Assembly: GCA_027021705.1 (NCBI GenBank)
Contig: JALUTT010000181.1
Span: 1 to 64,000 of the forward strand
Direction of reading: 5' to 3'
DNA from: Anaerolineae bacterium
GTDB taxonomy: Bacteria > Chloroflexota > Anaerolineae > S140-20
Length of the DNA: 64,000 bases
The notes under the pieces were generated by a model. It was not told the DNA's origin, made no database searches, and saw only the letters and a list, made by a program, of their open reading frames with translations. Shown here in pieces: positions 46,149 through 64,000 of the stretch (positions are counted from its first letter, which is position 1; every line of letters begins with the position of its first letter). The translations under genes were made by a program, and so were the position numbers.

Positions 46149-46176
46149 AACCCTTGTCTCCCAAAAGGCCTCTCGT

Positions 46177-48642: not shown

Positions 48643-51600
48643 CGTGGCGCACCTCTACGGTCACTTCCGCGTCGTCGGATAATTCGCTCAAGGCTCCCCA
48701 ACCTGTTGCGGGTTGGAGATTGACGGCTTCCAGCGCCTTTCGTAGAGCGCCAAAGCGGGCCTTGAATCTCAGCGGCTCGAAGGCCGGTGGAACAGGCGGC
48801 TTCTCCTCCTCCTGGTGCAACGTCTGGAGCTGCGTCAGTAGTTGGCTCCGCGGCATCTGCCCGGTGATGTACCGGGCGATGGCCTCCCGGGCTATTGCTT
48901 GCGACTCGGACTTCCGCAGCCCCTGGTACAGGTCCCGCATCTCCACGTCCTGCAGCCGGCCGACCATCTCGCGTGCCGCTTGGAGCATCTCCGGCAGGCT
49001 CTGGGGCGGAGCCGAGACCTTGGTCAGCCGGCGGATGCCGGCTTCCGAGGTAGGCTCTGCCAGCGCCCGGTCAATTGTTTCCAGGATGGCCGCGACCTGC
49101 TGCAGAGCCTGCTCCAGCTCTCGCGGGGCGCCCCCCAGCGGCTTGGCCGCTTCCGTCACCGCCTTGCGCAGTTGTCGGTATCCCTGCTCCTGTTGGGTGA
49201 AGAACTGCTGGAGGGAGGCCCAGGCCGCGTCCTGACGACGCACGCCGGGCTGGTCGGGGAGGGAGCCGGCGCCGATGGCCGCGTAGAAGGCGCTGAAGGC
49301 GGCCCACTCCCCGTGGCCCACCCGTTGGCCGGGGGTGAGCAGGTCGTTGCTGTGCAGGCTCAGTTGAGCCGGGTCCTCCACGGCCAGCGGCCCCCGCCCG
49401 CGCACAACCCGCAGGTCGCGAAAGATCACCGTCAGCCGGATCAGGAAATCGGCCAGGAAGGGTTGCAGGCCAAACTCTCTTCCCAGCCGGTTCTGCAGCT
49501 CCTTGACCCGCACGCCCTCCCCGCCTTTCAGGGCCTCCTCGATGGTCTGCACGTAGGGGGAGTTGCCCAGGTCCAGGGCATAGGCGGTGCCGGCGGGCTT
49601 GACGATGCGCAGGGGCATCCCGTAATGGGCAGCGTAATCGTGCGGCGGCCCCACCTCCGGCCCCACCCGGCCCTCTCCCTTGACCAGCGCCCGGTAGAGG
49701 CTCTCCAACGCCTGGGAGGTGACGTCGGCAGTGAACTCGGGATGTTGACGGAAGCGGGCGTCCAGCAGCCGCGCCCCCAGGTCCTTGAGAGCCTCCTGCA
49801 GCGTGGCCCCGGCCGAAGGGTTCTCGCCGATGCTCACCGAGGCGCTGAGCCGGCCCTGGCTGTAAAGGGAGGCTAGGCCGGCCAGCAGGCTCTCCCGCAA
49901 CTGAAAAGCCGCGGCCGTCCAGCTCTCCGTCAGCCGGCGTCCCTCCTCGCCGCTGTACTTCTCGGCGATGTAGGCCGTGCCCGCCGGGCTCTCGGTGAGG
50001 AAGAGGATGCGGGCCAGGTTGTCCAGCTGTTGACGCAGTTGATCGTCGGCCTCCTTGGGGATCCACACCGCGCCCGGCACACCGTTCTTGGGCGGCTTTG
50101 ACGGCACAGGGTCGCCGGGGAAGCGGGGGAAGGCGATCCAGACGGTGAACTCCGCCTTGGGGTCGGGCGGGGGAAGGTGGCCGGCGCCCGTCTCCACGGC
50201 TTGGACTGTCCCCGAGCGGTTGGTGCCGCGCCACTTGATGTTCAGCTTGCGCCGGCCCTGCAGCTTGTCGGTGCCGAAGAGGTTGTTCAGAAGCCCCAAC
50301 ACGGCCTGGCGGCGTTGCTCGGTCACGTCCTGGCTCACCTTGCGCAGCTCCGCCATAGGGTCGAGCCCCAGGCTCAGCTCCACCACCACCGCCTCGCCCT
50401 CGCGCTTGAAGGTGCCCAGCAGCCGGTCGCAGAGGAGGTCCACGACCTCCTCCAGTTGCTTGCGGGCCAGGATGACCACCTGGGCGTTGAGCACGGCGGC
50501 GTTGAGGGCCGCGATGACGGCGGGGGTCATGCGCCCGCGCAGGGGCGTCCCCTTGTCCGTCAGTTGGCCCAGGATGATGCTTTCCGCCACGGCCCGCCCT
50601 CGGGCGATGCGCTTGGCGTGGCCCAGGAAGTGTTCCTCCAGAAGAGGAACGACTTTGTCACGCATGATCACTTTGGCTGCCTGCAGCGCGGGCCGGTCTT
50701 TGAGCTCTCCCTCGGAGGCTTGCTCGATGAGGTAGTGGAAGGCGCGGTGGTAGGGAATGAGGGTGCCCAACGGCTCATCGGCCAGGTCGAAGAGCATATC
50801 GTACATGACGCTGATGGCGGTGCGTTCGCGGCTCAGCATGTGGGTCACCGAGACCAGGGTGTCCACGATGGCCGGATGGAAGGGGTAGAGGGCGCGGACG
50901 GCTTCCTCAAAGCGCTTGTGGCCGTAGAGTTGATGGAGCACCTCCAGTTGTTCGCCGGGGATCTGGGCCAGACTGGCTTTGACCGCTTCGTCCAGGGCTT
51001 TCTTGCGCCCCTTTACCGGCTTGAGGACGCGCTTGCCCAGCACCTCGTACAGGTCCACGTCTTGGATGTCTACGTCCCGTCCCGCGAAGCGCCCCTTGAC
51101 ATTGTCTAGGATGTCCCGGCCCACGTCGCGCACCACGTCCTCCAGGGGGGCGTGGCGCACCACCAGGGCCCAGACGGGGAGGGCGGCGCCCTCGGCCTCC
51201 AGAAGGGCCTTGAGTTCGACCATGGGCCGCGTGCGGTCTTTGGCGTTGATGAGGAAGAGGGTGAGTTCGTCAATGAGGAACGTGACGGCGGTGAAGCCGT
51301 GGTGCTTCAGGTGGGCGGTGATGCGCTTCATGCCCTCGGCCATCTCCACGGCGAAGGCGCCACCGCCCACCTCAGAAGGTAAGGCGATGTGCGAGGCGAT
51401 CTCGCGGGCCAGGAGTTCGCGGCCCTGGGGCGTGGCCTTCTGGGCCTCGTACTCCTGGCGGGAGGTCACCACCAGGCTGCGGTTGAAGAGGGTGTCCCAG
51501 AGGGCGGGGGTGTCGGCGGCCAGGTCCTCGAACCATCCGATGACGCGCTGGAAGTAGGTGAGTTCCACGGGGGGCAGGCCCTGGCGTTCCAGTTCGCGGG

Positions 51601-52015
51601 CGACGGCCTCGTAGAGGCCCAGGCGGAAGTCGTCGGGGCGGTCCAGGCTGTTGAAGGGCACCACGAAGACGGGGCGTTTCTCCAGGATGGCGCGCACGTC
51701 ATCCGAAAGGCCGGGGATCTCCCGCGCCCAGGCGGCGGACTCCCCGCGCAGGAGCATGCCGGCGAAGGAGAGGAAGTGGGACTTGCCGGTACCGAAGGAG
51801 CCACTGACCCAGACCCCCTGGCCGGGGAAGCCCTTGTCGGCGGACTCGGCCACGCTGCTCACCACGCGCCGCAGCCCCTCGGCCACGGTGTCGGTGATGA
51901 CGTACTCCCGGGCGTGGAAGACCTTGCGCTCCTCGTCGTTGATCTCGCCCACCTTGACCACCAGGGGTGGTTTGGTGGGTGGGATAGCGATGACGTCACG
52001 GATGTGGAGGGTCAT
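48629..52015 (-). CDS. PglY/BrxC-like P-loop ATPase
   Basis: YVITD, VSGSFGTGKSHFL, FLIDEL, YPFHPA..DTLVSV...LSRERTA (PglY-like); GAGGTGA RBS; overlaps pglZ. Confidence 0.85.
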   Translation of the reverse strand: MTLHIRDVIAIPPTKPPLVVKVGEINDEERKVFHAREYVITDTVAEGLRRVVSSVAESADKGFPGQGVWVSGSFGTGKSHFLSFAGMLLRGESAAWAREIPGLSDDVRAILEKRPVFVVPFNSLDRPDDFRLGLYEAVARELERQGLPPVELTYFQRVIGWFEDLAADTPALWDTLFNRSLVVTSRQEYEAQKATPQGRELLAREIASHIALPSEVGGGAFAVEMAEGMKRITAHLKHHGFTAVTFLIDELTLFLINAKDRTRPMVELKALLEAEGAALPVWALVVRHAPLEDVVRDVGRDILDNVKGRFAGRDVDIQDVDLYEVLGKRVLKPVKGRKKALDEAVKASLAQIPGEQLEVLHQLYGHKRFEEAVRALYPFHPAIVDTLVSVTHMLSRERTAISVMYDMLFDLADEPLGTLIPYHRAFHYLIEQASEGELKDRPALQAAKVIMRDKVVPLLEEHFLGHAKRIARGRAVAESIILGQLTDKGTPLRGRMTPAVIAALNAAVLNAQVVILARKQLEEVVDLLCDRLLGTFKREGEAVVVELSLGLDPMAELRKVSQDVTEQRRQAVLGLLNNLFGTDKLQGRRKLNIKWRGTNRSGTVQAVETGAGHLPPPDPKAEFTVWIAFPRFPGDPVPSKPPKNGVPGAVWIPKEADDQLRQQLDNLARILFLTESPAGTAYIAEKYSGEEGRRLTESWTAAAFQLRESLLAGLASLYSQGRLSASVSIGENPSAGATLQEALKDLGARLLDARFRQHPEFTADVTSQALESLYRALVKGEGRVGPEVGPPHDYAAHYGMPLRIVKPAGTAYALDLGNSPYVQTIEEALKGGEGVRVKELQNRLGREFGLQPFLADFLIRLTVIFRDLRVVRGRGPLAVEDPAQLSLHSNDLLTPGQRVGHGEWAAFSAFYAAIGAGSLPDQPGVRRQDAAWASLQQFFTQQEQGYRQLRKAVTEAAKPLGGAPRELEQALQQVAAILETIDRALAEPTSEAGIRRLTKVSAPPQSLPEMLQAAREMVGRLQDVEMRDLYQGLRKSESQAIAREAIARYITGQMPRSQLLTQLQTLHQEEEKPPVPPAFEPLRFKARFGALRKALEAVNLQPATGWGALSELSDDAEVTVEVRHDAEA

Positions 52016-52039
52016 GATTGTCACCTCACAACTCACAGA

Positions 52040-55000
52040 TCATAGCCAACTGCGTCTCTCCCATTCCTCTTCCGCCTGTTCGCGTTCGATCATTGACTGG
52101 AGCAAGTCAACCATGCGGCGTGCGAAGAGACGGACACGGAGATACTCATCCTCGAGCCACGGAGATATCGCTTCCAGGCGTTTTTGATAGAACGATACGA
52201 ATCCCGAAATAACGCCGGGGGTGCTACTGATCGCTCCTTCAACTTCACCGAGTACCTTCCGATCATCAGTGCGTCGGATGATCTCACGGCTCAGCTTGTA
52301 AAAGGCATCCCCTTCGTTGAATTCCCGTAAGATAGTGGCTGTAGCCCGGAGCTTTTCGACCTCATCGGACTCAACCCACTCCGTGAGCACCGCGTAGAGA
52401 GTCTTATCAAGGCCGCCGGCGATGGCCTTCAGTACATAGGGGGCTTCCCAGCGGAACCAGAAGTTTTCGCGCAGCATCCAATTGCGAACACGCCGTAGAA
52501 CGTCAGGGTACTCTTCGCTCTCGCGAATGCTTTCCATAGCTCGTGCAAACTGGAAGGGTACGGGTTCGTATCGTCTCTCTTGGGCCTCACGTTCATAAGC
52601 TATAGTGATGCGCTGCTCGATGAAGTCTATCACCTGCATCGGAGCAATTTGGCCCAATCTGTCCAGGCATCTTTCCACATGAAAGTCAAGCTGCGGTAAT
52701 CGTCCAAAGTGCTGAATGATCTCGAGAAAGTCTTGTGGGTCCTCGAACTCCACAGCCCAACCCTCCCCTGTGCTATCCGACCATGATAGTACCTCAGCAA
52801 TGTGCCGCAAGACAGCTTCGTCGCCACGAGCCGCAATAGTTTTGAGAACCTCAACCGCGAGAGCAGGGTTATGTGGTGCGTATTGCCGTGTCAGCCACAC
52901 CATCTCATGATCCAGGGCCGCTGTATTACAAGCCACGAGTTGGCGTAGCATCTCCCAGTCTTCATCCTCCATTTGACGCCAGTCCACAAACCGGAAGCTA
53001 TGCGCAGCAGCCAGCCAGAGGATCGCATCGCCGCTGGTGGTCCAATGTTTGAGGTATCTTTGCGCTATCTCGGGGACGCTTTTCCGCAATCCGGCAATCA
53101 CGAGCCCAAGGTGATGTTTAAGGGTCAACTCTTCAACTACGGCGCGGTCTATGAGCTGCTGGGCCAGATCAGGATGCTGTTCACCCAGACGCTGCAATAG
53201 CCGATTGAGCCAAGTAGTACCTGTTTCGCCAACAGTACGCGCTTGATGAGCAATTGTCTCCAAGTCGCGCAAAGCTCGATCAAAAGTGTCTGGCTTAAGC
53301 TGACCGAGGTAACGCTCGACAGCCTCCTGGCGCCGCCGCTCGGCTTCCCGCCAATCCAATTCCTTGTCCGGTTCCTCCGCGTCCCGGCGATGCCATCCAA
53401 CCAGCACTCGGTAAAGTTGATAGAGTTGATGGCTGTTAAGCCGCTCACTAAGGCGGTCCAACGCCTCATCTTCATAAGCAGCCCACCGTCTGGCATGCCA
53501 GAGCCATTCCGAGATTGCGTCCAGAACGGGAAGGTCCGCTGTCTCAACCACGTCAGAGAAGAAACGGGCAGTATTCACACAGTCAGGTCGAAGCCATTCA
53601 CGGATTTCATCTGGCACGCGAACTATTGAGGGGAAATGTGGGATCGCTCCATCCAGAGCCTGAACAATACGGAGTCGCTCAGCGGGAGAAGTTGCTTGAC
53701 GATATGCGTTATAGAGGATGTCTAGCGCCTGCTGTCGGATGTGTCTCAAGGGCTCGGCAGGAGTGAGCAGGCCCCGATGGAGGATCACTTTGAAAGGTTC
53801 CGTTGGATCGGCCTCAGCGCTATGTAACTCCATCGACAACATTGCTTCTACCAGTTTCAAGGCCAGGTCGAGGTTCTCCGTGAAATCCTCAGCCAGCCAC
53901 CGGGGAATGGCTTCCAGAAGCGTCAGTTGCACAGCATAGGGCTTGCGCGGCTTAAATTCGGCAATTTCAGTCAACACTTTGCGCGCTTCTTCTCTCACAT
54001 AGGCATAACTCGAATCGTGAGGGCAATATCTGGCAAGTTTATGCAAATAGGTGATAGTATCTCGCAAGGCGCTATACTGGGTGCGCTTCAGTATTTCGAC
54101 AGCCTGACCCAACACCATCTCGTGGCTAATCTCATAAGCACCACCCCAAGGGGCACGATAGGTCTCGGGAGGCTGTTCTCTGCCATCCACGATGCGGGCG
54201 ACGATCGCCAACGTATCGTCGGCTCTCAGATAAGCCACGTTCTGCAACCAATCGAGAATGGCATAGCGGGCTATGTTGCCTTGGGTATCGATAGCCCGAG
54301 ACAGTTCATCGAGTCTGCGACCCAAGAGCACACCTGCTTCACGGGATTCTCCCTTGACCTCTGCCTTGGCCAAGTTAGTCAGGATTTCTTTGGCTTTCAG
54401 ATCGAAGAATGGTTCGATGACTTGTTTTTGGTAGTCGGCGCGTCGAGTTGTGGGGTCAAAGTAGTGGCTCACCAGGATGTGGTCGGCCAAGACCTCAGAG
54501 GCGATCCGAATGGTCTGCCAGTAGCGATCTATTAGGCCTGACGCTTCCAGTCGTGTAACAATGCGTTCTTCTTCAGATGGTGAGATACCGACGACCTCTT
54601 GCACACGTTGGCGGAGAGTGTCGTTGGTCAGCTCAATTGTGCCCAGAGCAGCAAGGATTTCGAGATAGTGCACATATCGATCATCGTAGCCAGCCTCGGC
54701 CAAGTCACGGATGAGTTCATGAAAGTAGCGGGAAAGCACTTCATCTCTGGTAAGTCTGGTTACATCTTCGCCACGCTGAACCAGGCGTGCGCCCAATTGG
54801 GCGAGCAGCGGGTTACCTTCGGCCACAGCAATCAGTGCCCGACGCGCGTGCTGATCCTCGATATGGTAAGGTTCGCTTTGAAGCAGACGATCGATGTCAG
54901 CATTTGTCAGTGGACCAAGTTCCAAGTAAGCGATTTCATCCCCTGAGATTTGAGGGAAGCGAGCTGCTATATACTCAACGAATACGCTGCGTGTGCTGAG

Positions 55001-55633
55001 AATGAGTTTCACCTTACCGGCGTAGTCTGGATTAACCAGTACCTCGCGAAGGTGAGAAAGCGGCGTAAAACGATGGGCGTCATCCACGACGATTACGTGC
55101 TGTTGGTCCCGATCGAGAGTAGCCAAGTCGTATTCGATGCTTTCAGCTTCAGTGCGGGCGTACCACAGTTTGACATCTTCGGGAACGATCTCTGACAAGG
55201 CGAGTAGCAATCGAGTCTTACCGATACCCCCAGGACCATGAAGAACAATGATACGTTTTTGTTCTTGGAGCCATGCCGCCACTTGCTGAAGAGTCTGCTC
55301 CCGTCCCACCATTTCTCCCCTGTAGCATCCAAGCGCAGTTTGCTCAATCCGCACTGCAAAATCCTGAACTGTGAGTAAGGATCGAAATCCAGTATGAACG
55401 GCCTGCCATATAGCGACTGCATCTGGGCCTTTGATAATACAGACTATGTTGTTATCACCAGTTATAACGACAAGGTCGTGCGCGTCTCCTCCTAATGCCA
55501 CAGCCCGATCACCAGTGGCAAGGGTAATCCGTCCTGTTTGAAGGGCTTGGCGCAAGGTGGCGATGTCGGCATCAGTGTAGGTGCCGGCTGCAATGCGGTC
55601 GAGAACACGCTTCAATTCGTTAAACTCCGTCAT
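52040..55633 (-). CDS. STAND-class (NLR/Avs-like) ATPase with N-terminal EAD10-like helix and amyloid-like motif and a long helical-repeat C-terminus
   Basis: LHGPGGIGKTRL, IVVDDAH, ILSTR, EGNPLL; N-terminus ELKRVLDRIAAGTYTDADIATLRQAL + ATGDRAVALGG..VVITGDNNIV. Confidence 0.8.
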   Translation of the reverse strand: MTEFNELKRVLDRIAAGTYTDADIATLRQALQTGRITLATGDRAVALGGDAHDLVVITGDNNIVCIIKGPDAVAIWQAVHTGFRSLLTVQDFAVRIEQTALGCYRGEMVGREQTLQQVAAWLQEQKRIIVLHGPGGIGKTRLLLALSEIVPEDVKLWYARTEAESIEYDLATLDRDQQHVIVVDDAHRFTPLSHLREVLVNPDYAGKVKLILSTRSVFVEYIAARFPQISGDEIAYLELGPLTNADIDRLLQSEPYHIEDQHARRALIAVAEGNPLLAQLGARLVQRGEDVTRLTRDEVLSRYFHELIRDLAEAGYDDRYVHYLEILAALGTIELTNDTLRQRVQEVVGISPSEEERIVTRLEASGLIDRYWQTIRIASEVLADHILVSHYFDPTTRRADYQKQVIEPFFDLKAKEILTNLAKAEVKGESREAGVLLGRRLDELSRAIDTQGNIARYAILDWLQNVAYLRADDTLAIVARIVDGREQPPETYRAPWGGAYEISHEMVLGQAVEILKRTQYSALRDTITYLHKLARYCPHDSSYAYVREEARKVLTEIAEFKPRKPYAVQLTLLEAIPRWLAEDFTENLDLALKLVEAMLSMELHSAEADPTEPFKVILHRGLLTPAEPLRHIRQQALDILYNAYRQATSPAERLRIVQALDGAIPHFPSIVRVPDEIREWLRPDCVNTARFFSDVVETADLPVLDAISEWLWHARRWAAYEDEALDRLSERLNSHQLYQLYRVLVGWHRRDAEEPDKELDWREAERRRQEAVERYLGQLKPDTFDRALRDLETIAHQARTVGETGTTWLNRLLQRLGEQHPDLAQQLIDRAVVEELTLKHHLGLVIAGLRKSVPEIAQRYLKHWTTSGDAILWLAAAHSFRFVDWRQMEDEDWEMLRQLVACNTAALDHEMVWLTRQYAPHNPALAVEVLKTIAARGDEAVLRHIAEVLSWSDSTGEGWAVEFEDPQDFLEIIQHFGRLPQLDFHVERCLDRLGQIAPMQVIDFIEQRITIAYEREAQERRYEPVPFQFARAMESIRESEEYPDVLRRVRNWMLRENFWFRWEAPYVLKAIAGGLDKTLYAVLTEWVESDEVEKLRATATILREFNEGDAFYKLSREIIRRTDDRKVLGEVEGAISSTPGVISGFVSFYQKRLEAISPWLEDEYLRVRLFARRMVDLLQSMIEREQAEEEWERRSWL

Positions 55634-57072
55634 CAGTGGTCCCTCTCTTCACCTGTTTCTCTGGCCAAACGTGCTAGGTTATGAGACACGGTGTTTGCCA
55701 GTTCCTGATCGCCGGCCTGGATAGCTAGCCGTAAAGCCTCAGCGTAGAGAACTCGGGATCGAACGATGTCACCTTCAAATTGACAGGCCAAAGCCAAGTT
55801 GTTGAGTGCAATGGCTTCACCTTTCCGATTCGCGAGGCTCTGAAAAAGCTGGCGCGCTTGTTCAAGGTTTTCACGGGCCAGATGAAACTCTCGTTGGTGC
55901 AAATGGATTTCACCGATTGCTGCCAACGTATGAGCCTCGGCGTTCTTGTTGTTCAGCATACGCCATAGACTCAGTGCCTTCTTCCGATACGTGAGCGCCT
56001 CATCGAAGGCGTAGCGGGTCTGATGGATCGCAGCGATATTATCCAGCAGCGTAGCCTGTTCAACTTTGGACCCTAGCCCTTCAAAGAGTGTTAACGCTCG
56101 CTCGTTGTAGTCCAAAGCACGTTCAAAATCACCAATTGCACTGTAGAGGCTGCCCAGATTGGCTAGAGATATTGCTTCCTGCAAAGGAGCTCCGATCTCA
56201 CGGAAGATCTCCAGGGCCTGTTCGCTATAAAGCCGGGCCTTATCAAGTTGTCCTAGACACTGCGCCAGTTCACCCAGGTTTCCCAGAGCAACCGCTTCAT
56301 GGAAGCGATGACCCGTCTGGACAAAGAGTTCCAGTGCCCTGGAACCATAGGTTAACGCTTTGGAATACCACGCATCTCGTTCAGCTGATGAAACAACGTC
56401 TGCTTTGTTTCGACACGTAATTGCCAGATTGTTTAGTGTCGAGGCTATGGCGACCTGATCATCTTGAGTACGGTATAAAGCCAGTGCTTGTTCATAGAAC
56501 GAGATGGCATCGTCCCATTGCTCTAAATCGGCATAAGCCCGGCCCATGTTCTGCAAAACGGTTGCTTCGCCTGAAGAGTCACCTTCGACACGGAAGAGTT
56601 GCAATGCTTGTTCGTAATAGTGCAAGGCTCCAGTTATTTTACCCTCAGCCTGGGATACTAATCCCAGCCCGTTAAGAGCCCTGGCCTGGCAAGGACGGTC
56701 ATCCAATTGACGAAAGATGGTCAGCGCCTGCTCATAACATTCACGGGCTCGAGACCACTCGCTCAGTGTATACCACGCAGCACCCAGGTTATTCCAGAGA
56801 GCACCCACGTCGTGGGTTTGACCCTGGTTTTGCGCGGCAGCGAGCCCGCGTTGATACCATGCAATGGCTTCCCGCCACAAAGCGCGTTGCTCAAGAAAGG
56901 GGCGCACTGCCCATACGTAGGCTAATATTAGCCCTGCATCACCGTTGATGTCGTTCACCCAGGTCCAAGCACGGCGAATTTGCTCCAATTCACCTTCAAG
57001 CCGCTGCCAGTCACCAGGGTTAGATTGGATCAGGGAAAGATAATAGTACGCGTACCGTTCCCAGGCACTCAC
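55633..57072 (-). CDS. Stand-alone TPR-repeat protein (sensor 3)
   Basis: ~40-aa repeats A..LNNLG..Y..L.....A...YEQAL; GTG start; TGATG coupling to the STAND gene. Confidence 0.9.
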   Translation of the reverse strand: MSAWERYAYYYLSLIQSNPGDWQRLEGELEQIRRAWTWVNDINGDAGLILAYVWAVRPFLEQRALWREAIAWYQRGLAAAQNQGQTHDVGALWNNLGAAWYTLSEWSRARECYEQALTIFRQLDDRPCQARALNGLGLVSQAEGKITGALHYYEQALQLFRVEGDSSGEATVLQNMGRAYADLEQWDDAISFYEQALALYRTQDDQVAIASTLNNLAITCRNKADVVSSAERDAWYSKALTYGSRALELFVQTGHRFHEAVALGNLGELAQCLGQLDKARLYSEQALEIFREIGAPLQEAISLANLGSLYSAIGDFERALDYNERALTLFEGLGSKVEQATLLDNIAAIHQTRYAFDEALTYRKKALSLWRMLNNKNAEAHTLAAIGEIHLHQREFHLARENLEQARQLFQSLANRKGEAIALNNLALACQFEGDIVRSRVLYAEALRLAIQAGDQELANTVSHNLARLARETGEERDH

Positions 57073-57074
57073 GT

Positions 57075-58598
57075 TTAACCGGTCGTTGATATCTGCTCCA
57101 AACGTTCTCGAAGTTTGGTCAGGTGAAAAGCATGTTGCTCTACCTCAGGATCACCGACTGATCGTTCGTAATCCACAACAATTTGGAGAAGTTCCACTGC
57201 ACGCGGTAAATCGCCTGCGCGTTCGTATAACCGGCTTAGGTCCCAGGTGTAGATCGCTTCCCCTCCCTTATCTCCGATCTCGCGAGCGATATGTCGTGCC
57301 TGTTCATAGTACTCTAATGCCTTCTGGATATCTCCCAACTGCCAGTAGACCAATCCCAGCCGGCTCAACCGGATGCTTTCTCCCCATCTATCGCCTATGT
57401 CACGAGCAATCTTCAAGGCTCGTTGGTAATATTCGATAGCCTTGGACGTGTCGCCCAAATCCTGCAGAATGCGGCCCAGATTGCTGAGCCACGCCCCCTC
57501 GTTTTGCCGGTCACCCACACGGTGAGCAATTTCCAGGGCTTGTTCGTAACAGTGTGTAGCTTCTTGCCACTCGCCCAGGTCAGCGTACGCCATTCCCAGG
57601 ATACCCAAGCGAGCCCCTTCTGCTTGTAAATCTCCAATCTCCCTGGCAATCTCCACAGCACGTTTAACGTACTCAATCGCCCTGTCCGGATCGCCCAGAA
57701 CAAGATACGTTCGGCCCAGGTTACTCAGCCACGTCCCCTCACTCAGCCGGTCACCAATGTCACGGGCTATCTGCAACGCCTGCTTGAAACATTCAATAGC
57801 CTTTTGCCAGTCTCCCAGGTCAAGCCAGCCACGCCCCAGATTGCCCAACCAGACCCCCTCATTTCGACGGTCACCCGTGTCACGGGCAAACCGAAGAGCC
57901 CGCTCATAGTACGAGATAGCCGTTCGCACTTCTCCCAGGTCAGCATAGGCGAGACCCAGATTCCCCAGATCAGCTCCTTCGCTGCGCCGATCCCCTATCT
58001 CTCGATCAATCGCCAATGCTTGTTCGAAGCAGGAGATGGCTCGTTGGGTCTCTCCCAAGCTCAGGAGGGCCAACCCAAGATTACCTAGCCAGATAGATTC
58101 CTGTTTGCGGTTCTGTAACTCGTGGTGAATCGTCAGGGCCGCCTCAAAGTGCCGGATAGCTTTGTCAATCTCCCCAATGTCTAAGTAAACCAGCCCCAAG
58201 TTGCCCAGACGGCTACCTTCTGCGCCCCGATCACCAACATCCTGTGCAATTCGCAGAGCCTGTTCATAACACTCGATGGCCTTGCGTGCTTCGCCAAGGC
58301 GGTAATACGCTAATCCCAGGTTCGCCAACATTACACCCGCTACCTGATTACCGTTCGGAAGTGTTCTTGCCACCACCAAGCCTCGCTCATTCCAAGCGAT
58401 GGCCTCCAGCCACAGTCCGCGCATCTCCTGAAAGGGGAAGAAAGCTTGAACGTAAGCCAGGACCAAATCCTTGTTCTCCTCTTTGCTCACCCAGGCCCAG
58501 GCACGACGAATCTGGTCGAGCTCACGTTCGACCGCTTGCCAATCGCCGTTTTGAGTCACTGCCAGATAGTAGCGCGCGTGCCGCTCACGGGGGCTCAT
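57075..58598 (-). CDS. Stand-alone TPR-repeat protein (sensor 2)
   Basis: Regular 40-aa repeats GDR..EG..LGNLG..Y..LG....AI..YEQAL.IAR; start MSPRERH, ATGA-coupled. Confidence 0.9.
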   Translation of the reverse strand: MSPRERHARYYLAVTQNGDWQAVERELDQIRRAWAWVSKEENKDLVLAYVQAFFPFQEMRGLWLEAIAWNERGLVVARTLPNGNQVAGVMLANLGLAYYRLGEARKAIECYEQALRIAQDVGDRGAEGSRLGNLGLVYLDIGEIDKAIRHFEAALTIHHELQNRKQESIWLGNLGLALLSLGETQRAISCFEQALAIDREIGDRRSEGADLGNLGLAYADLGEVRTAISYYERALRFARDTGDRRNEGVWLGNLGRGWLDLGDWQKAIECFKQALQIARDIGDRLSEGTWLSNLGRTYLVLGDPDRAIEYVKRAVEIAREIGDLQAEGARLGILGMAYADLGEWQEATHCYEQALEIAHRVGDRQNEGAWLSNLGRILQDLGDTSKAIEYYQRALKIARDIGDRWGESIRLSRLGLVYWQLGDIQKALEYYEQARHIAREIGDKGGEAIYTWDLSRLYERAGDLPRAVELLQIVVDYERSVGDPEVEQHAFHLTKLRERLEQISTTG

Positions 58599-60019
58599 CT
58601 CGTCCTTCCCCTGCGCATGAAACGCCGTGCTATTTGTGCAAGACGAGCAAGAGGTTTCTGGATGTTTCGCTTCGCTGCCGGCCCCGTTTGTTCCTGAGCT
58701 GGCCACTCAGGCGATTCATTGACCTGTATCAAGGTGCTCTCTCGTTCCAGAACGAGACTGCGATTCCGGCGAATAACCGCGCTAAGGTGTTCATCTCCGA
58801 TTTCTTGAGCAAGGCTCAAAGCCTGTTCATAATACATTACCGCCCGATGTTCCTTGCCTAGACCTTCGGCAAGATTGCCCATTGCCGCCAGCAAGCGCGC
58901 TTCCATCTGCTTCTGTCCTATTTCCCGGCTTATGCGCAACGCTTGCTCGTAGTATCGAGCTGCCCTTTCGAGTTTGCCCAGACGATGATAAGCCTGTCCA
59001 AGGCTCGCAAGCCGACCACCTTCGACAACCCTGTTGCCTATGTGGCGTGCAGCAACCAGGTTCTGCTCAAAACACTGAATAGCACGCTCAATCTCACCTG
59101 TTTCCAGGTAAATATCACCAAGACCGCCTAATAGATCGCTCTCTTGAATCCTGTCACCCATTAAACGCGCCAAATTCAATGCATCCTCAATAAGTTCTAC
59201 CGCCTTTGAAAGGTTACCTTCTATCCGAGCAATACTTGCCAGGCTATACAAAAACCCTATCTCCAGGTCCTGATCTCCTGCCAAGAGAGCGTGCTTCAAT
59301 CCTTTTCGGTATGTTTGGCGTGCTTTGCGCCAATTGCCAACATCGAGGAGTGCATTCCCTCTCATCTGGAGTGCAAGCGCGATAGATCTATGATCACGCT
59401 GCTTAGAAGCAAGAACATACATCTGTCTTTGCAGTCTTTCCGCCTGACGTAGATTACCCAGGCGACGGAAGGCGCTTTCCATGCTCATCAAGGCAACAAA
59501 CTCTGTCTGCCAGTCTTTGGCGTTCTGCGCCAGAATCTGTGCACGTTTGTAGCATTCAAACGCTTTTGTTGTATCCCCCATCGCCAAATAGGCACTACCA
59601 AGCCGCAAAAGTATCAGGGATACAATACGGTTCCCGTGTTGCTCTAGAGACACGGATGAGAGGAGCGAATAGGCTCGCTCACAGCAATCGGCAACCTGCT
59701 TTGAATCGCCCAGGTTGTCGTGGACTTCACTGAGTCGCAAAAGAGAGAAAAGTTCGGCGATTTTGTCCTGTTTGCTCCGCGTTACCTCTAGCTCGCGCTG
59801 TGTCCATTCAAGCGCCTCTTTCCACAGACCGCGCAGTTGTAAGTGCGGATAGAACGTTTCTACGTAATCCGATAGCAGTTGCGGATCCCCTTGAGCAGCA
59901 ACCCAATTCCACGCATGCCTTATTTGCGGCCATTCGGCGTCGAACCATTGCCAATCCTTAAGATGGGCTTTGGCATATTCCAGGTAAAATCGAGCGTGTC
60001 GTTCCAGCACCTTGCTCAT
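58595..60019 (-). CDS. Stand-alone TPR-repeat protein (sensor 1)
   Basis: TPR-like repeats (LGSAY..G...KA..CY; LGQAYHRLG..ERA..YYEQAL); ATGA-coupled to the NB-ARC gene. Confidence 0.88.
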   Translation of the reverse strand: MSKVLERHARFYLEYAKAHLKDWQWFDAEWPQIRHAWNWVAAQGDPQLLSDYVETFYPHLQLRGLWKEALEWTQRELEVTRSKQDKIAELFSLLRLSEVHDNLGDSKQVADCCERAYSLLSSVSLEQHGNRIVSLILLRLGSAYLAMGDTTKAFECYKRAQILAQNAKDWQTEFVALMSMESAFRRLGNLRQAERLQRQMYVLASKQRDHRSIALALQMRGNALLDVGNWRKARQTYRKGLKHALLAGDQDLEIGFLYSLASIARIEGNLSKAVELIEDALNLARLMGDRIQESDLLGGLGDIYLETGEIERAIQCFEQNLVAARHIGNRVVEGGRLASLGQAYHRLGKLERAARYYEQALRISREIGQKQMEARLLAAMGNLAEGLGKEHRAVMYYEQALSLAQEIGDEHLSAVIRRNRSLVLERESTLIQVNESPEWPAQEQTGPAAKRNIQKPLARLAQIARRFMRRGRTR

Positions 60020-61164
60020 AGTCCCATCTTTTCCATCATTTCCGCCGCATAGTCGGCCAGCAGCGCATGCATCCAGTAGCGCTCGCCCCGACGCTCCACC
60101 AGACCGCGTTGGATAAAGCGCGAGATGGTCGCTTCAGCTTCTTCCACCGAACATTCCCACACATGAGCAGCAGCCTTGATCTCCCACGTAAGTGGCTCGC
60201 CGCCGAAGACGGCCAGCATGGCAAAGCGTTCTTGGTCGGTCTTGCTCAGCCGCTCCACGCTCATCCCCAGAATCGCCTGAAGGGAGACGGGTTGGTCTTC
60301 GGCCAGACCTAGGCGTCCTTCCGCCTGGAGCAGCTGCAAACGGGCTTCCCGGTGCTCCATGAGCTCATCCAGCAGCCGTTGCATCCGCGTTGGCACGTCA
60401 GCCTCGCTGGCTAGCAACCGCCCTGCCAAGGTCAGAGCCAAAGGCAGGAACTCTAGCCGTTCACAGAGACGCATTGCGTTTTGCTCATCAGCGGCAACAG
60501 CTTCGGGTGCCAAGCGGCGTAATAGTGCCAGAGCAGCCTCCGGTTTCAGCACATCTACCCGCAGTGTCCGTCCGCGTGTGGCCAATGTATAAGCAATGGG
60601 TGCCTCACGGGTGGTAAGGACCGTACGACAACGAGGACCGGCGACCATGAAGTACTGACCGTGGGTTACCTCCCAAACATCATCCACAATCAGCAGCACG
60701 CGTCGGTGATAAAGAACGGCCCGGAGACGATCACGACAGGCATTCTCATCGCGCTCTGGTAGCAAATCTACCCCAAGGGCCCGACCCCACCCATCGAGGA
60801 GGATGCGAATGGTTGGGTTAGGCCCCAAGGCTACCCAAAGCACACCATCGGGGAAGAGCTTGGGAATGATCTCTAACCGTCCTAAGGCGATGGCTAGGGT
60901 TGTCTTGCCGATGCCGCCCATCCCACGCAGAGCTACTGGGGGGATATCAGTCGCCTGCTCATCATCAAGAGCCAGCAGGTCGAACAAGCGAGTCAGGTCC
61001 TCGTCACGGCCGAGAACACCCTGGGGTGGGAGCGGCGGCGTCATAAACGGTGGCGGCGTTCGCGTTGCTGGCATACCGACGGTAGCAGCCGCTTGGTCAC
61101 CGATAGCTAGGCCGTAGACGGTGCCATGAATCGTCACCTTGTGCCGATCGAGTTCGTTGCTCAT
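60016..61164 (-). CDS. NB-ARC protein lacking a C-terminal sensor domain, with N-terminal amyloid-like motif
   Basis: LGRDEDL, LRGMGGIGKTTLA, FPDGVLWV, LLIVDDVW, VLTTR, FLPLAL, YWMHALL, then a stop 13 residues later. Confidence 0.9.
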   Translation of the reverse strand: MSNELDRHKVTIHGTVYGLAIGDQAAATVGMPATRTPPPFMTPPLPPQGVLGRDEDLTRLFDLLALDDEQATDIPPVALRGMGGIGKTTLAIALGRLEIIPKLFPDGVLWVALGPNPTIRILLDGWGRALGVDLLPERDENACRDRLRAVLYHRRVLLIVDDVWEVTHGQYFMVAGPRCRTVLTTREAPIAYTLATRGRTLRVDVLKPEAALALLRRLAPEAVAADEQNAMRLCERLEFLPLALTLAGRLLASEADVPTRMQRLLDELMEHREARLQLLQAEGRLGLAEDQPVSLQAILGMSVERLSKTDQERFAMLAVFGGEPLTWEIKAAAHVWECSVEEAEATISRFIQRGLVERRGERYWMHALLADYAAEMMEKMGL

Positions 61165-61220
61165 AGACTTCTCCTCATGGCCGTTCCACTAGCCGCCCAG
61201 CGGTTTTGCCTATGGAACGC

Positions 61221-61763
61221 TCAGGATTCGCTTGCTTCTCCAGATGCTGGTGGTTCAGCTCCTTCTACGTTCACATTAACCAGTGCCTGGTTGCCAAGAG
61301 CCATCCCCCTGGCTTCGCCGACATTCACGCTGTATTTCCCCTGTTGCACCACGTTCTGGTCACCGGTCACGATGATGCTGCCTTCAATCTTTCTAGCTGC
61401 CACGCTGTGTTCACCGCTAGCAATTACGGTTACGCCCATAGCCTTTGCCTTTTCCCACAATTGGGCCACTTCAGCAGCCAGTTCTTCGTCCTCGGACAGG
61501 ATTTTCCTGAGTTGCAGGCGCAGGGCGGCTTGGGCGTCCCCATCTTTCGGCGCTGCGGCCACATCCTGCACTGCTTCCCGTGCCGCTGGCTTGGCCTCCA
61601 CCTTGGAGCGCAGTTTGCCCCACAGCGCCTTGGCTTTCTCCCAGGCGTCGCCACCCAGTTTCTTGCCTGCTTCCTCAGTCGCTCTTTCACCTGCCTTGAG
61701 CAGGTAAGGCAAGAAAGGGGTAAGAAAAGCGGCTACGTCCTTCGCCAGCATTGCTATGTCCAT
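61221..61763 (-). CDS. Small helical Bell/HeLo-like putative effector with two C-terminal amyloid-like motifs
   Basis: FLTPFLPYLLKAGE..EEAGKKLG.DAWEKAKALW helical domain followed by a G/N/Q/V-rich beta-type tail. Confidence 0.7.
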   Translation of the reverse strand: MDIAMLAKDVAAFLTPFLPYLLKAGERATEEAGKKLGGDAWEKAKALWGKLRSKVEAKPAAREAVQDVAAAPKDGDAQAALRLQLRKILSEDEELAAEVAQLWEKAKAMGVTVIASGEHSVAARKIEGSIIVTGDQNVVQQGKYSVNVGEARGMALGNQALVNVNVEGAEPPASGEASES

Positions 61764-61778
61764 CGTAAGCTCCTTCTG

Positions 61779-64000
61779 TTATCCCATCACCACATACGGA
61801 TACGGCTCCACGTCCCCGATGATGCTCCGCAGCCCCTCCCGTACCTCCGGATCCTCGATGTCCGGCGCCTCTTCCGGCAAAGTGATGAGCCGGGCCACCC
61901 AGCGGTAGAAGGGCGTTTTGTCCTGGGCCTCTTCCGCCAGGGTGAGGAAGATGTTGGCCTGGGCCTCCGGGCTCCACCCCGTCCAGCCGTACAAATCCCG
62001 ATTGACGCCGTCGAAGCGGAAGAAGCGCTCGTGGAGGACGTCTACCTTCTTGGGCTTGCGGCCCACCAGCACTTTCTCCTCGTCGAAAGGGATGGGCCGG
62101 CAGTCCCAGTCCATGCACTCGCGCACGAACTGCTCCGCCGAAATGGGCCGGCCGCCGTAGTAGACCGCCCGCAGGGGCTCGAACTTGGGGTTTCGCGCCA
62201 GAATACCGGCGACCTCTGCCGGGGTGAGCGGCCGCTCCCGCAACGGCGGCTGGGCGGCGAAGATGTCTTCGATGAGGTCGCAGATGTAGTCGCGGATTTC
62301 GAACTGCATCTCTTTATGCCAATCGAAATCGTGAAGGAGATCCGAGGATTCCCAATCTGCTAATGCCGAGACGACCTCCTCTTCAAGTTGATAAATGTCT
62401 CGCACGCAGCCATCGACTTCTCTTTGTAGTTCCACCCACCTTTGAGCAAGTTGCTCAAGATTGCCGCGATATGCTTGCTGGCGAGTTTGTAAGTCGGCTA
62501 GTGACTCGAAATGCACGTCTCGTATCAGGTGATACGGATGTAACGCGTTGATCTGCTCCACGAGGCTTGTCATTTCTTGTGAAAGTGCTATCAGTGTCTC
62601 GGCTGCAGTTCCATCTGGCACTGGGATCGGGAACCCTTTGATGTGATGGCCATAGATGTCGAAATACTGCTGGCGCACCCGGCTTGCCGTTCTCGCCACG
62701 TAGAAAGCAAACAAAGACGAATTCATCAACGCTGCCAAATGGAAAGTAAGTTCCCCTTCATCCAATTTCGGGTACGCAACCTGGGCTGGATGATCCACCA
62801 AGAATCGGCCTATACTGTCACCGAAGGCATGTGGGCGCAACACCACGCTGGGCCAGGCAATCTTCGGCACGCCCAGGCGGGCGTTGGTCTGATGGAGCCG
62901 GAAAAAGGGGATGCCAGCGTCCTTGTAAGTCATCCGTTCCCAGGTGGCTCGCGCCCAAAGATATTCCTTGTACCTCAGTAGGTAACGGTAAGCGTTGGGA
63001 TACCGTTCGGCGAAATCGGCGATAAGTTCGCCTGTCTCCTTATCATGGGTGTAAAGCACATACGTCTGCTCCTTCTTCCGGTTCCCGTGCCAAGTGACGG
63101 TCCAGTTGCGGATGTTCTTCCCCCGCAGGCAGGGGATGCAGATTTCCCGCTCCAGCTTGTTCCGGCGGATGAAGCTCTCCGTGATGTAGTCGCAGAAGAC
63201 CGGGTCGGCGTTGGTCATGAAGTCCACACCGATGCGCGCGTAGTCGGCCAGGGTCTTGTCGGAGGCGGCCCGGATTTTGCCCAGCAGGTCGCGGGCGCTG
63301 CGGCGCAGGGTCCAGGGATGAGAGCGGAAGTGCTCCTGCCGCTCCCAATAGTGACCGGCATAGTCCTTGAAGACGGCACCCCCTCCCCGGCCCTCCCACC
63401 CCCCTCCGGCTCCCCCCTGAGAGGGGGGAGTGAGCAGGCAGTGCAGGGCGGCCCATGTCTCCTCTCGCGTCCGGCCCGCCGGCTGGTAGGTGGCCAGCAC
63501 CTCCACCGGCGCATCGGCGGGCACGGGGGCATCGTCCTCCGGCCGCTGCACCACGATGAGGGCGGGGTAGGCGCCGGCCTCGAAGACCTGGGCGTCGGTC
63601 AGGTCGGCGAAGAAGAGCAGGCGGTAACGCTCGCCCGCCAGCAGCGCGGCCAGCTTCTTGCCATAGGCCTGCTTGGCGAACTTGCCGCTGGTGATGTAGC
63701 CCAGGTAGCCACCGGGCACCAGCAGTTCCAGCCCCCGTTCGACAAAGGGTACCGAGAGGTCAAAGTTGCCACTGGCTGTCTTGTAGTTTGTGCGCAGGTA
63801 CTGGACGAAGTCCACCCGCTCCCAACTGCCGTTCACCGGTGCGACCACCTCGGCCCCCTGACGGTGGATGCGCACGTAGGGCGGGTTGGCGTTGACCACG
63901 TGGAAGCCCTTGGCCAGGGCGTCCCGCAGGTCCACCCGCAGGTGGGTTAGCTCCCGGCCGTACCAGCGGGCCACAGGGTCCGTCTCCCGGCGGGGCGGCC
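61779..64000 (-). CDS. PglX-like / type IIG N6-adenine DNA methyltransferase, 5' part outside the window
   Basis: GFHVVNANPPY, DLSVPFVERGLELL..GG.LGYITS.KF, LRGKNIRNW, AALMNSSL (TaqI-C-like); frame is open to the window edge. Confidence 0.85.
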   Translation of the reverse strand, partial: PPRRETDPVARWYGRELTHLRVDLRDALAKGFHVVNANPPYVRIHRQGAEVVAPVNGSWERVDFVQYLRTNYKTASGNFDLSVPFVERGLELLVPGGYLGYITSGKFAKQAYGKKLAALLAGERYRLLFFADLTDAQVFEAGAYPALIVVQRPEDDAPVPADAPVEVLATYQPAGRTREETWAALHCLLTPPSQGGAGGGWEGRGGGAVFKDYAGHYWERQEHFRSHPWTLRRSARDLLGKIRAASDKTLADYARIGVDFMTNADPVFCDYITESFIRRNKLEREICIPCLRGKNIRNWTVTWHGNRKKEQTYVLYTHDKETGELIADFAERYPNAYRYLLRYKEYLWARATWERMTYKDAGIPFFRLHQTNARLGVPKIAWPSVVLRPHAFGDSIGRFLVDHPAQVAYPKLDEGELTFHLAALMNSSLFAFYVARTASRVRQQYFDIYGHHIKGFPIPVPDGTAAETLIALSQEMTSLVEQINALHPYHLIRDVHFESLADLQTRQQAYRGNLEQLAQRWVELQREVDGCVRDIYQLEEEVVSALADWESSDLLHDFDWHKEMQFEIRDYICDLIEDIFAAQPPLRERPLTPAEVAGILARNPKFEPLRAVYYGGRPISAEQFVRECMDWDCRPIPFDEEKVLVGRKPKKVDVLHERFFRFDGVNRDLYGWTGWSPEAQANIFLTLAEEAQDKTPFYRWVARLITLPEEAPDIEDPEVREGLRSIIGDVEPYPYVVMG

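Follow-up and report, generated by a model that had tools for sequence, protein, structure and literature searches.

The stretch of DNA analysed here, hereafter the window (64,000 nucleotides of an Anaerolineae bacterium; assembly GCA_027021705.1, contig JALUTT010000181.1, positions 1 to 64,000), holds a cassette of six genes on the minus strand that encodes a small Bell-type effector, an NB-ARC protein, three TPR proteins and a STAND NTPase. The C-terminal tail of the effector joins two short motifs of different families: the second (motif 2) resembles the N-terminus of the NB-ARC protein encoded by the next gene, and the first (motif 1) resembles a segment near the N-terminus of the STAND NTPase encoded by the last gene. 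The best explanation that we can offer, to which we give about an even chance, is that one executioner forms the shared output of the two sensor modules in the cassette. The original prediction, made from the letters of the DNA, had cast this arrangement as an OR gate; for the operon we regard such a gate as a reasonable hypothesis and not as a result. The features that carry the argument are the following (aa, amino acids; ORF, open reading frame; HMM, hidden Markov model; BASS, bacterial amyloid signalling sequence).

61221..61763, minus strand: effector gene; 180 aa, Bell-type helical N-domain and composite tail; from the ORF
61347..61430, minus strand: motif 1, BASS6-like / EAD10-A type; effector residues 112-139; motif-1 HMM E ~1e-15; C09 type
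61272..61340, minus strand: motif 2, BASS3-like; effector residues 142-164; resembles C03; beta part of Pfam EAD10
60016..61164, minus strand: NB-ARC protein; 382 aa, Pfam NB-ARC 1.6e-24, without sensor repeats, motif-2-like N-terminus
61078..61140, minus strand: NB-ARC N-terminal motif; residues 9-29
58595..60019, minus strand: TPR protein 1; 474 aa, start overlaps the NB-ARC stop (ATGA); from ORF and domain scan
57075..58598, minus strand: TPR protein 2; likely start ATG at 58598, overlapping the TPR protein 1 stop; longest ORF to 58706
55633..57072, minus strand: TPR protein 3; 479 aa; from ORF and domain scan
52040..55633, minus strand: STAND NTPase; 1197 aa, EAD10 N-terminus, start overlaps the TPR protein 3 stop by one base
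55442..55528, minus strand: STAND motif-1 segment; residues 36-64, within the EAD10 domain (residues 1-80, nt 55394-55633)

Each effector motif matches a different NTPase of the operon

The four motif segments lie exactly where the original prediction had placed them, and its central claim, that the two motifs each match a different NTPase of the operon, was borne out by local alignment scores compared with 2000 composition-preserving shuffles. The effector tail aligned to residues 1-45 of the NB-ARC protein with a score of 44 (shuffles 19.8 ± 3.6; 0/2000 reached 44) and to residues 1-80 of the STAND NTPase with a score of 48 (shuffles 24.4 ± 4.6; 1/2000 reached 48). As to the cross pairs, motif 1 versus the NB-ARC protein was not significant (427/2000 shuffles reached the score) and motif 2 versus the STAND NTPase showed a weak similarity (22/2000).

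The HMMs for the N-domain, motif 1 and motif 2 were built from effector sequences only. The motif-1 HMM nevertheless found the STAND N-terminus in the genome-wide set of 53,824 ORF segments (domain E = 1.9e-5). The motif-2 HMM reached the window NB-ARC protein only at E = 0.6, and not at E ≤ 1 genome-wide; because of this weak reach, the effector-NB-ARC match rests on the shuffle test and on conservation in orthologues. The same N-terminal motif is kept, by alignment, in the NB-ARC orthologues of three homologous loci (L009, L090, L094), each of which follows a two-motif effector, and it is also present in that of L006, though there it is read across an assembly break.

In related loci, the alignment of the canonical EAD10-type partners (L020, L021, L096, L098) to the tail covers motif 2 and also the final strand of motif 1, so that a division of the tail into three segments, a, b and c, describes it better. 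Judged by these alignments, a+b is motif 1, b+c is the EAD10-type motif 2, and the two codes overlap; the earlier description of the codes as orthogonal thus had to be given up.

Relation of the motifs to BASS and EAD10

Among the Bell-side BASS training sequences (PMC8086366 supplement), motif-1-type tails occur in cluster C09, of which entry C09_s051 is a fragment of a two-motif tail. Because C09 has 111 members (s111 is present, s112 absent), which equals the BASS6 training size in Table 1, we infer from set size that C09 represents BASS6 and that motif 1 is BASS6 and not BASS1, the label that it had originally been given. The likeness of motif 2 to RHIM-like BASS3 that had also been proposed was seen in part: cluster C03, recognised as the RHIM-like BASS3 set by its GVQIGD core, has the consensus GKYxVxxxxAxGVQIGDxNTQxNxF, and in a comparison by eye motif 2 and the NB-ARC N-terminus share its first two thirds (GKYxVxI...G-L-A-I-G-D) and lack the central Q and the NTQxNxF end.

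With respect to Pfam EAD10 (PF19954; gathering cut-off 24.1 bits), the STAND NTPase scored 37.4 bits (2.6e-9), above the cut-off, and gave matches to nSTAND5 and AAA_16 under their cut-offs. The effector stayed below the EAD10 cut-off, with 20.7 bits for the whole protein (residues 132-162) and 22.8 bits for the tail alone, and the NB-ARC N-terminus gave no match to this model. Canonical Pfam EAD10 proteins in related loci (1e-15 to 5e-24) consist of two helices followed by ...VQxGKYN[IV]x[IL]xxGQxxxIGDxxYxG, the same strand pattern as in motif 2, which suggests that EAD10 and BASS motifs largely describe the same objects. On the sequences compared, the strand part of EAD10 and the BASS3/BASS6 motifs appear to have been described independently by two groups, and the finding would thus connect two literatures.

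The effector is of the Bell type

The original prediction held that the effector tail is common to the adjoining NLR-like proteins (NLR, NOD-like receptor); this was confirmed, and the effector could be identified as Bell-type. It is a short protein of 180 aa (Bell proteins have about 120-140 aa in addition to the motif), with a hydrophobic N-terminal helix and Asp at position 2 (it begins MDIAMLAKDVAAFLTPFLPYLL), where a negative charge at position 2 or 3 is expected for Bell proteins. In the AlphaFold 2 (AF2) model, six helices are predicted over residues 3-108, mostly with pLDDT (predicted local distance difference test) values of ~88-93, which corresponds to a helical bundle; tail residues 113-180 have a pLDDT <50 and are predicted to be disordered in the monomer. 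Homology to the Bell set was tested indirectly: the N-domain HMM matches effectors of L031 (Nostoc, 5e-43) and L046 (Chloroflexus, 4e-41), the tails of which are near-identical to the Bell-side entries C09_s014 and C09_s010, respectively. A genome-wide scan showed that the window effector is the only strong Bell N-domain in its own genome.

The 718 effector homologues derive mainly from Chloroflexota metagenomes and fall in two length classes: proteins of ~142 aa that end directly after motif 1, and proteins of ~170 aa in which motif 1 is followed by motif 2. A few homologues carry an extra KTSC domain.

The tail type co-varies with the motif of the neighbouring gene

We took the best 120 of the 718 homologues and dropped two odd rows (P0112 and P0113), which left 118 nearest homologue clusters: 52 with both motifs, 66 with motif 1 only and none with motif 2 only. 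The mean pairwise identity of motif 1 is 0.649 in both two-motif and one-motif effectors, and the N-domain identities are 0.70 and 0.72. The genetic context was collected for 80 genome and 32 metagenome loci (one of them the window's own contig) and all ORFs were scanned with the three HMMs. After removal of near-identical tails, 73 pairs of effector and next gene remained: 36 with a motif-1-only tail, 14 with a two-motif tail and 23 with other tails. A contingency count on these pairs replaced a whole-tail rank test of cognate versus non-cognate partners, which is uninformative for two-motif tails because motif 1 scores high with any motif-1 receptor.

In the one-motif loci the next gene carries an N-terminal motif 1 in 19/36 cases and motif 2 in 0/36, and in the two-motif loci it has a motif-2-like N-terminus in 9/14 cases (window, L005, L008, L009, L020, L021, L090, L094, L096; the L009 partner, which the HMM did not reach, was judged by alignment) and motif 1 in 0/14. 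The corresponding Fisher p values, 8e-7 for motif 2 and 3e-4 for motif 1 in the next gene, overstate the association because related loci are not independent. The conservation of motif pairing in homologous loci that had been proposed as a check was therewith found. As to the two-motif loci without a motif-2-like next gene, in the assembly of L006, which contains X's, effector and motif-2 NB-ARC are read as one fused frame, L087 lies at a contig end, and L088, L092 and L101 have KTSC-fused effectors without an adjoining NLR. Beyond the effectors, the motif-2 HMM gave 14 matches at E < 1, 11 of which are to the gene directly 3' of a two-motif effector; the other three are a frameshifted effector end (L006) and two elsewhere.

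The partners that carry motif 2 are of three kinds: i) sensor-less NB-ARC proteins as in the window (L006, L009, L090, L094); ii) canonical EAD10 NTPases (L020, L021, L096, L098); and iii) large NACHT proteins in which a helical N-domain precedes the motif, found around residue 200 (L005, L007, L008). When the one- or two-motif label was placed on a quick tree of the N-domain it changed 19 times, at least 4 changes being forced by well-supported branches, which suggests that segment c was often gained or lost.

The two-motif tail occurs also on caspase effectors (L006, L009, L111, L112) and on Bell-CHAT effectors (L090, L094). The latter (L090:1379-3481 and L094:2389-4473) are fusions of ~700 aa, with a Bell N-domain, a two-motif tail and a CHAT protease, and are followed by a motif-2 NB-ARC gene. 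In the caspase (Peptidase_C14) effectors (L009:819-1925, L006:6591-7613, L111 and L112) motif 1 followed by motif 2 makes up the C-terminal tail, and L009 combines a caspase effector, a two-motif Bell effector and an EAD10-only protein of 197 aa in one locus. A KTSC domain (PF13619) is found at the C-terminus of two-motif Bell effectors in L088, L091/L092, L096, L098 and L101, and in P0020, P0041 and others; around the KTSC-type effectors of L088/L089 no NLR lies within 10 kb, and the gene that comes next, of ~230 aa, is unrelated. In the adjacent pair at L028:5346-6190 effector and receptor both read TGN, versus TGD in the family, which looks like a two-sided motif change.

The STAND N-terminus and the split NB-ARC/TPR module

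The AF2 model of STAND residues 1-100, made from 10 sequences, predicts a compact alpha+beta domain (pLDDT 79-86 over residues 11-80), the strands of which are formed by motif 1. A homologue of the STAND body has an Mrr_cat nuclease in the place of EAD10; as this follows the published pattern of all-in-one versus adaptor proteins, the N-terminal module of the STAND NTPase is probably its output port. Homologues of the STAND body were found in 9 of the 401 genomes of the phylum that were searched (G000, the window's genome, included), and none of them has an adjoining Bell effector in the short loci that were returned.

The NB-ARC protein differs from a one-polypeptide NLR, in which NB-ARC and C-terminal repeats are joined: its 382 aa end after the NB-ARC domain and the TPRs are encoded by three separate ORFs. 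By analogy, the split set of NB-ARC and TPR proteins would work like an NB-ARC-TPR NLR, and it may allow interchangeable sensors for one switch. The same split is found in L090, L009 and L006 (coordinates: 55633-61164 in the window, L090:3494-6092 and L009:4823-9008). The three TPR paralogues have the N-terminal sequence ...ERHARYYL...DW...QIRRAW.WV... in common. We also considered that the TPR genes could be fragments of a broken NLR and rejected this, as L090 again has the ATGA overlaps and the N-terminal sequence common to the paralogues.

The six genes form a foreign cassette within a BREX-type operon

From the first to the last gene of the six-gene block, the junctions are a gap of 56 nt, two ATGA overlaps in succession, a gap of 2 nt and an overlap of 1 nt. 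GC content at third codon positions (GC3) is 0.50-0.62 in the six genes versus 0.78-0.88 in the BREX genes on both sides, in a genome with a GC content of 0.66. The low GC3 that all six genes have in common indicates that they arrived together, and the contrast with both flanks that the block is a foreign cassette within the BREX operon. Judged by packing and composition, the six genes are one tightly packed, horizontally acquired Bell/BASS (equivalently EAD10-adaptor) operon.

The cassette is flanked by pglX on one side and brxC/pglY on the other, in a BREX-type operon (pglX, brxC, pglZ, brxL; window 44589-63974), with gaps of only 15 nt and 3 nt at its two ends, so that one defence module sits within an operon that itself serves defence. 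Neither the effector nor the NB-ARC protein is covered by a PADLOC model. The flanking genes are:

61779-63974, continuing past the window edge, minus strand: PglX-like methyltransferase
48629-52036, minus strand: BrxC/PglY
46177-48642, minus strand: PglZ
44589-46394, minus strand: BrxL

Proposed mechanism

The observed gene order, motif matches, family conservation and co-variation of motif 2 with the neighbour's motif are consistent with the following scheme, in which binding, templating, membrane attack and the role in defence are what we infer. The first gene would yield a small helical, probably membrane-attacking executioner with a free tail of strand segments a, b and c, in which a+b would constitute motif 1 (BASS6-like; corresponding to the EAD10 type A beta part) and b+c, or c alone, motif 2 (BASS3-like; the canonical EAD10 beta part). 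The NB-ARC switch, which lacks a sensor of its own, would carry segment c at its N-terminus and be served by the three separately encoded TPR sensor paralogues next to it, and the last gene would provide a different STAND NTPase with a+b inside its N-terminal EAD10 domain. When an invader is sensed, either NTPase would oligomerise and thereby cluster its motif copies, and the clustered motifs would serve as nuclei for a homotypic beta-strand assembly that takes up the corresponding part of the effector tail, either by amyloid-like templating or by stoichiometric beta-augmentation. Concentrated in this way, the effector would become active, with membrane damage and abortive infection as the outcome. 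Its output is possibly open also to motif-bearing receptors encoded elsewhere in the genome.

A more specific version makes the tail a three-segment combinatorial adaptor, where receptors with a+b and receptors with b+c (or c) nucleate the same executioner and where gain or loss of segment c rewires the system; we put this forward tentatively, with less than even confidence. If true, prokaryotic amyloid/adaptor immune signalling would here have a natural node at which many inputs are integrated into one output, and the scheme would extend to the caspase and CHAT effectors with the same tail.

Is motif 1 a second receptor input?

The arrangement of one effector and two NTPases that was originally noted recurs in L096, with the same order of a motif-2 and then a motif-1 NTPase: a Bell-tail-KTSC effector is followed by an EAD10-NACHT-HEAT protein of the motif-2 type and then by a NACHT protein that has motif 1's second half. 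L092 holds a two-motif effector and, 1.2 kb away, a motif-1 NLR, though this NLR comes with a one-motif effector of its own.

Several observations weigh against a shared output within the cassette. Of the two-motif Bell loci, 7 extend for at least 6 kb downstream, and a motif-1 NTPase was present in only 2 of these (the window and L096) and was not found in the other five (L006, L008, L009, L020, L088). In three of the five other genomes with two-motif effectors (those behind L006, L009 and L020; two of the three are incomplete metagenome-assembled genomes) the only ORFs on which two profiles detected motif 1 were small ones of effector size; large motif-1 carriers do occur in the genomes of L007 and L008. 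The motif identity between effector and STAND NTPase, 31% (11/36), is lower than that of all 19 adjacent motif-1 pairs (39-79%, median 55%). In addition, about 10 other large proteins in the genome of the window carry motif 1 or motif 2, so the sharing of motifs is not operon-specific. The motif-1 carriers are C144 (EAD10-STAND-WD40), C77, C88 (CHAT-AAA-TPR), C162, C36, C73 (trypsin-motif-NACHT) and C178, next to the small proteins C120 and C175 (trypsin), and the motif-2 carriers are C51 (EAD10-NB-ARC), C52 (NACHT-TPR), C77 and C40; these other motif-carrier genes have the native high GC. The effector motif 1 is closer to C144 (48%) and to C77 than to the operon STAND NTPase (32%), while the small proteins C120 (43%) and C175 (42%) have tails that resemble the STAND motif more than the tail of the operon effector does (32%). 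The two matches of the operon are real without being the best that the genome offers; the effector may serve as a hub to a larger number of receptors than two, or other outputs may be used by the STAND NTPase. Moreover, the STAND-side motif is predicted to lie within a compact alpha+beta domain, which is more in keeping with a globular adaptor than with a free amyloid segment. Finally, the N-domain of the effector lacks a significant structural match: Foldseek of the model against the PDB gave zero matches at E ≤ 0.001, a wide VIA-align structure search gave a best Z of 4.9 (with the CC domain of ZAR1, Z = 4.6, among unrelated rows), and a profile search of PDB sequences gave nothing under E = 0.14, so that the proposed membrane attack rests on sequence features and family context; as to a relationship with HeLo/MLKL/CC folds, these structure searches point neither way.

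C77 (G000:C77:110237-115627, L121), a protein of 1797 aa, carries motif 2 (residues ~191-210) and then motif 1 (235-259), in reversed order, behind a helical N-domain, and is thus a receptor-like protein with both codes.

Competing explanations

The effector might answer to one cognate receptor, the a-b-c tail being a single self-assembly unit in which motif 1 is the polymerising core and motif 2 provides the coupling to the NB-ARC/TPR set, while the STAND NTPase is a separate system that happens to have this widespread adaptor in common with them and passes its signal to other motif-1 proteins. This would account for the absence of motif 2 without motif 1 (0/118 clusters), for the retention of motif 1 in two-motif effectors even where the genome shows no large motif-1 receptor (3/5), and for both the low effector-STAND identity and the closer fit of the STAND motif to C120 and C175. 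It sits less well with the physical linkage of the STAND gene, the start of which overlaps the stop of TPR protein 3 and which has the low GC3 of the cassette, with the lack of any other Bell-type or motif-1 effector in the cassette (the only strong Bell N-domain of the genome being that of the effector itself), and with the repetition of the two-receptor layout in L096. Furthermore, one-motif effectors pair with motif-1 receptors in 19/36 loci, which indicates that in other members of the family motif 1 serves as a code for receptors. We consider a single receptor unlikely, and convergence of two receptors plausible for this cassette, with the chances about evenly balanced.

The wiring could also be as proposed and the coupling not amyloid, in that the motifs are the beta part of a globular alpha+beta EAD10 adaptor that docks stoichiometrically and homotypically like Death-fold adaptors. 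The compact helix-strand domain in the AF2 model of the STAND N-terminus (from only 10 sequences), the EAD10 matches of the STAND NTPase (above the cut-off) and of the canonical partners, and the description of EAD10 as a mixed alpha+beta homotypic adaptor in the accessible text of PMC7159879 all point in this direction. They are countered by the predicted disorder of the effector tail in the monomer model, by the position of the motif at the extreme N-terminus without helices in many partners (L022, L023, L036 and the window NB-ARC protein), by the occurrence of the same motif types in published BASS training sets, and by the reported formation of fibrils and prions by BASS3 peptides (10.1101/2020.01.06.895854, as far as its accessible text goes). 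In our estimate a purely globular mode is somewhat improbable, although on the models the coupling may be prion-like templating or stoichiometric strand docking. Mere chance resemblance of Gly/Val/Asp-rich low-complexity segments, with no functional link, could be suspected as the segments are short and compositionally biased and the motif-2 HMM hardly reaches the window NB-ARC protein; yet shuffles that keep this composition still gave 0/2000 and 1/2000, tail type and neighbour's motif type are associated throughout the family, and the NB-ARC N-terminal motif is kept in three orthologues and, across the assembly break, in L006, which makes this explanation very improbable.

Comparison with known systems

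Amyloid- and EAD-type adaptors (EAD, effector-associated domain) are thought of as private lines, from one sensor to its effector or from one sensor to several effectors. An effector that joins two motif families beside two matching sensors therefore offers a compact test bed for the specificity of short codes, for whether different motifs can feed one executioner, and for the rewiring of immune modules by motif swapping. Much of the background is already in print, as far as the accessible text of the sources cited here goes: Bell/NLR pairs and the prion behaviour of BASS1 and BASS3 (10.1101/2020.01.06.895854, Dyrka et al. 2020), where repeats of one motif on an effector, and not a two-family composite, are described; the EAD principle and EAD10 adaptors (Kaur et al., PMC7159879 and PMC8195603); the control of two effectors by one NLR (PMC7885112); and a combined two-motif N-terminus on five fungal NLRs (PMC9815663). 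No description of an effector tail that combines two motif families, with a different NTPase matching each, was found in the accessible text of this literature, the supplementary tables of 10.1101/2020.01.06.895854 lying outside its scope.

The closest relatives are the Bell/BASS-NLR pairs of Dyrka et al. As reported there, these consist, like the window genes, of a small helical protein in which the N-terminal helix is hydrophobic and residue 2 is acidic, and a collinear NB-ARC or NACHT protein that repeats the C-terminal motif of ~25 aa at its N-terminus, with tiny intergenic gaps; the Bell-side training set (PMC8086366) even includes tails of the family of the window effector (C09_s010, C09_s014, C09_s051). 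The window differs in that its tail holds two motif families, each matched by a different NTPase of the operon, and in that its NB-ARC protein is without repeats of its own, three TPR proteins being encoded separately. EAD10 adaptors (PF19954) are represented by the STAND N-terminus above the cut-off and by the effector tail below it, and, as the EAD principle has it in the accessible text, copies occur in the genome of the window on core NTPases and on separate effectors, in the same operon or elsewhere. Unlike EAD10, the window effector has the strand part only, without the two helices, and joins two flavours of it, and the NB-ARC N-terminus is not recognised by the Pfam model.

Bab/Agp of E. 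coli, a Bell-like amyloid anti-phage pair (10.1101/2024.11.07.622273, accessible text), likewise combines a Bell-related small protein with an adjacent sensor that has a terminal motif in common with it, and is located in a defence island. For that pair amyloid signalling and abortive infection have been proven experimentally; Bab/Agp differs in its BASS11 motif, its single partner and its sensor, which is built as TPR-GreA/B-C-PIN and is not a STAND NTPase. The accessible text of PMC8195603 reports this very Agp architecture as one found through EAD10. In the PP-motif cluster hellp-sbp-pnt1 of Chaetomium globosum (PMC7885112, accessible text), as in the window, more than two clustered proteins are linked by short amyloid-type motifs that run from NLR to effector. 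There, one NLR controls two effectors via one motif, and the window presents the reverse, with one effector, two NTPases and two motif types. The parts of the cassette are thus of known kinds, and their combination of two motifs with two receptors was not found described in the literature searched.

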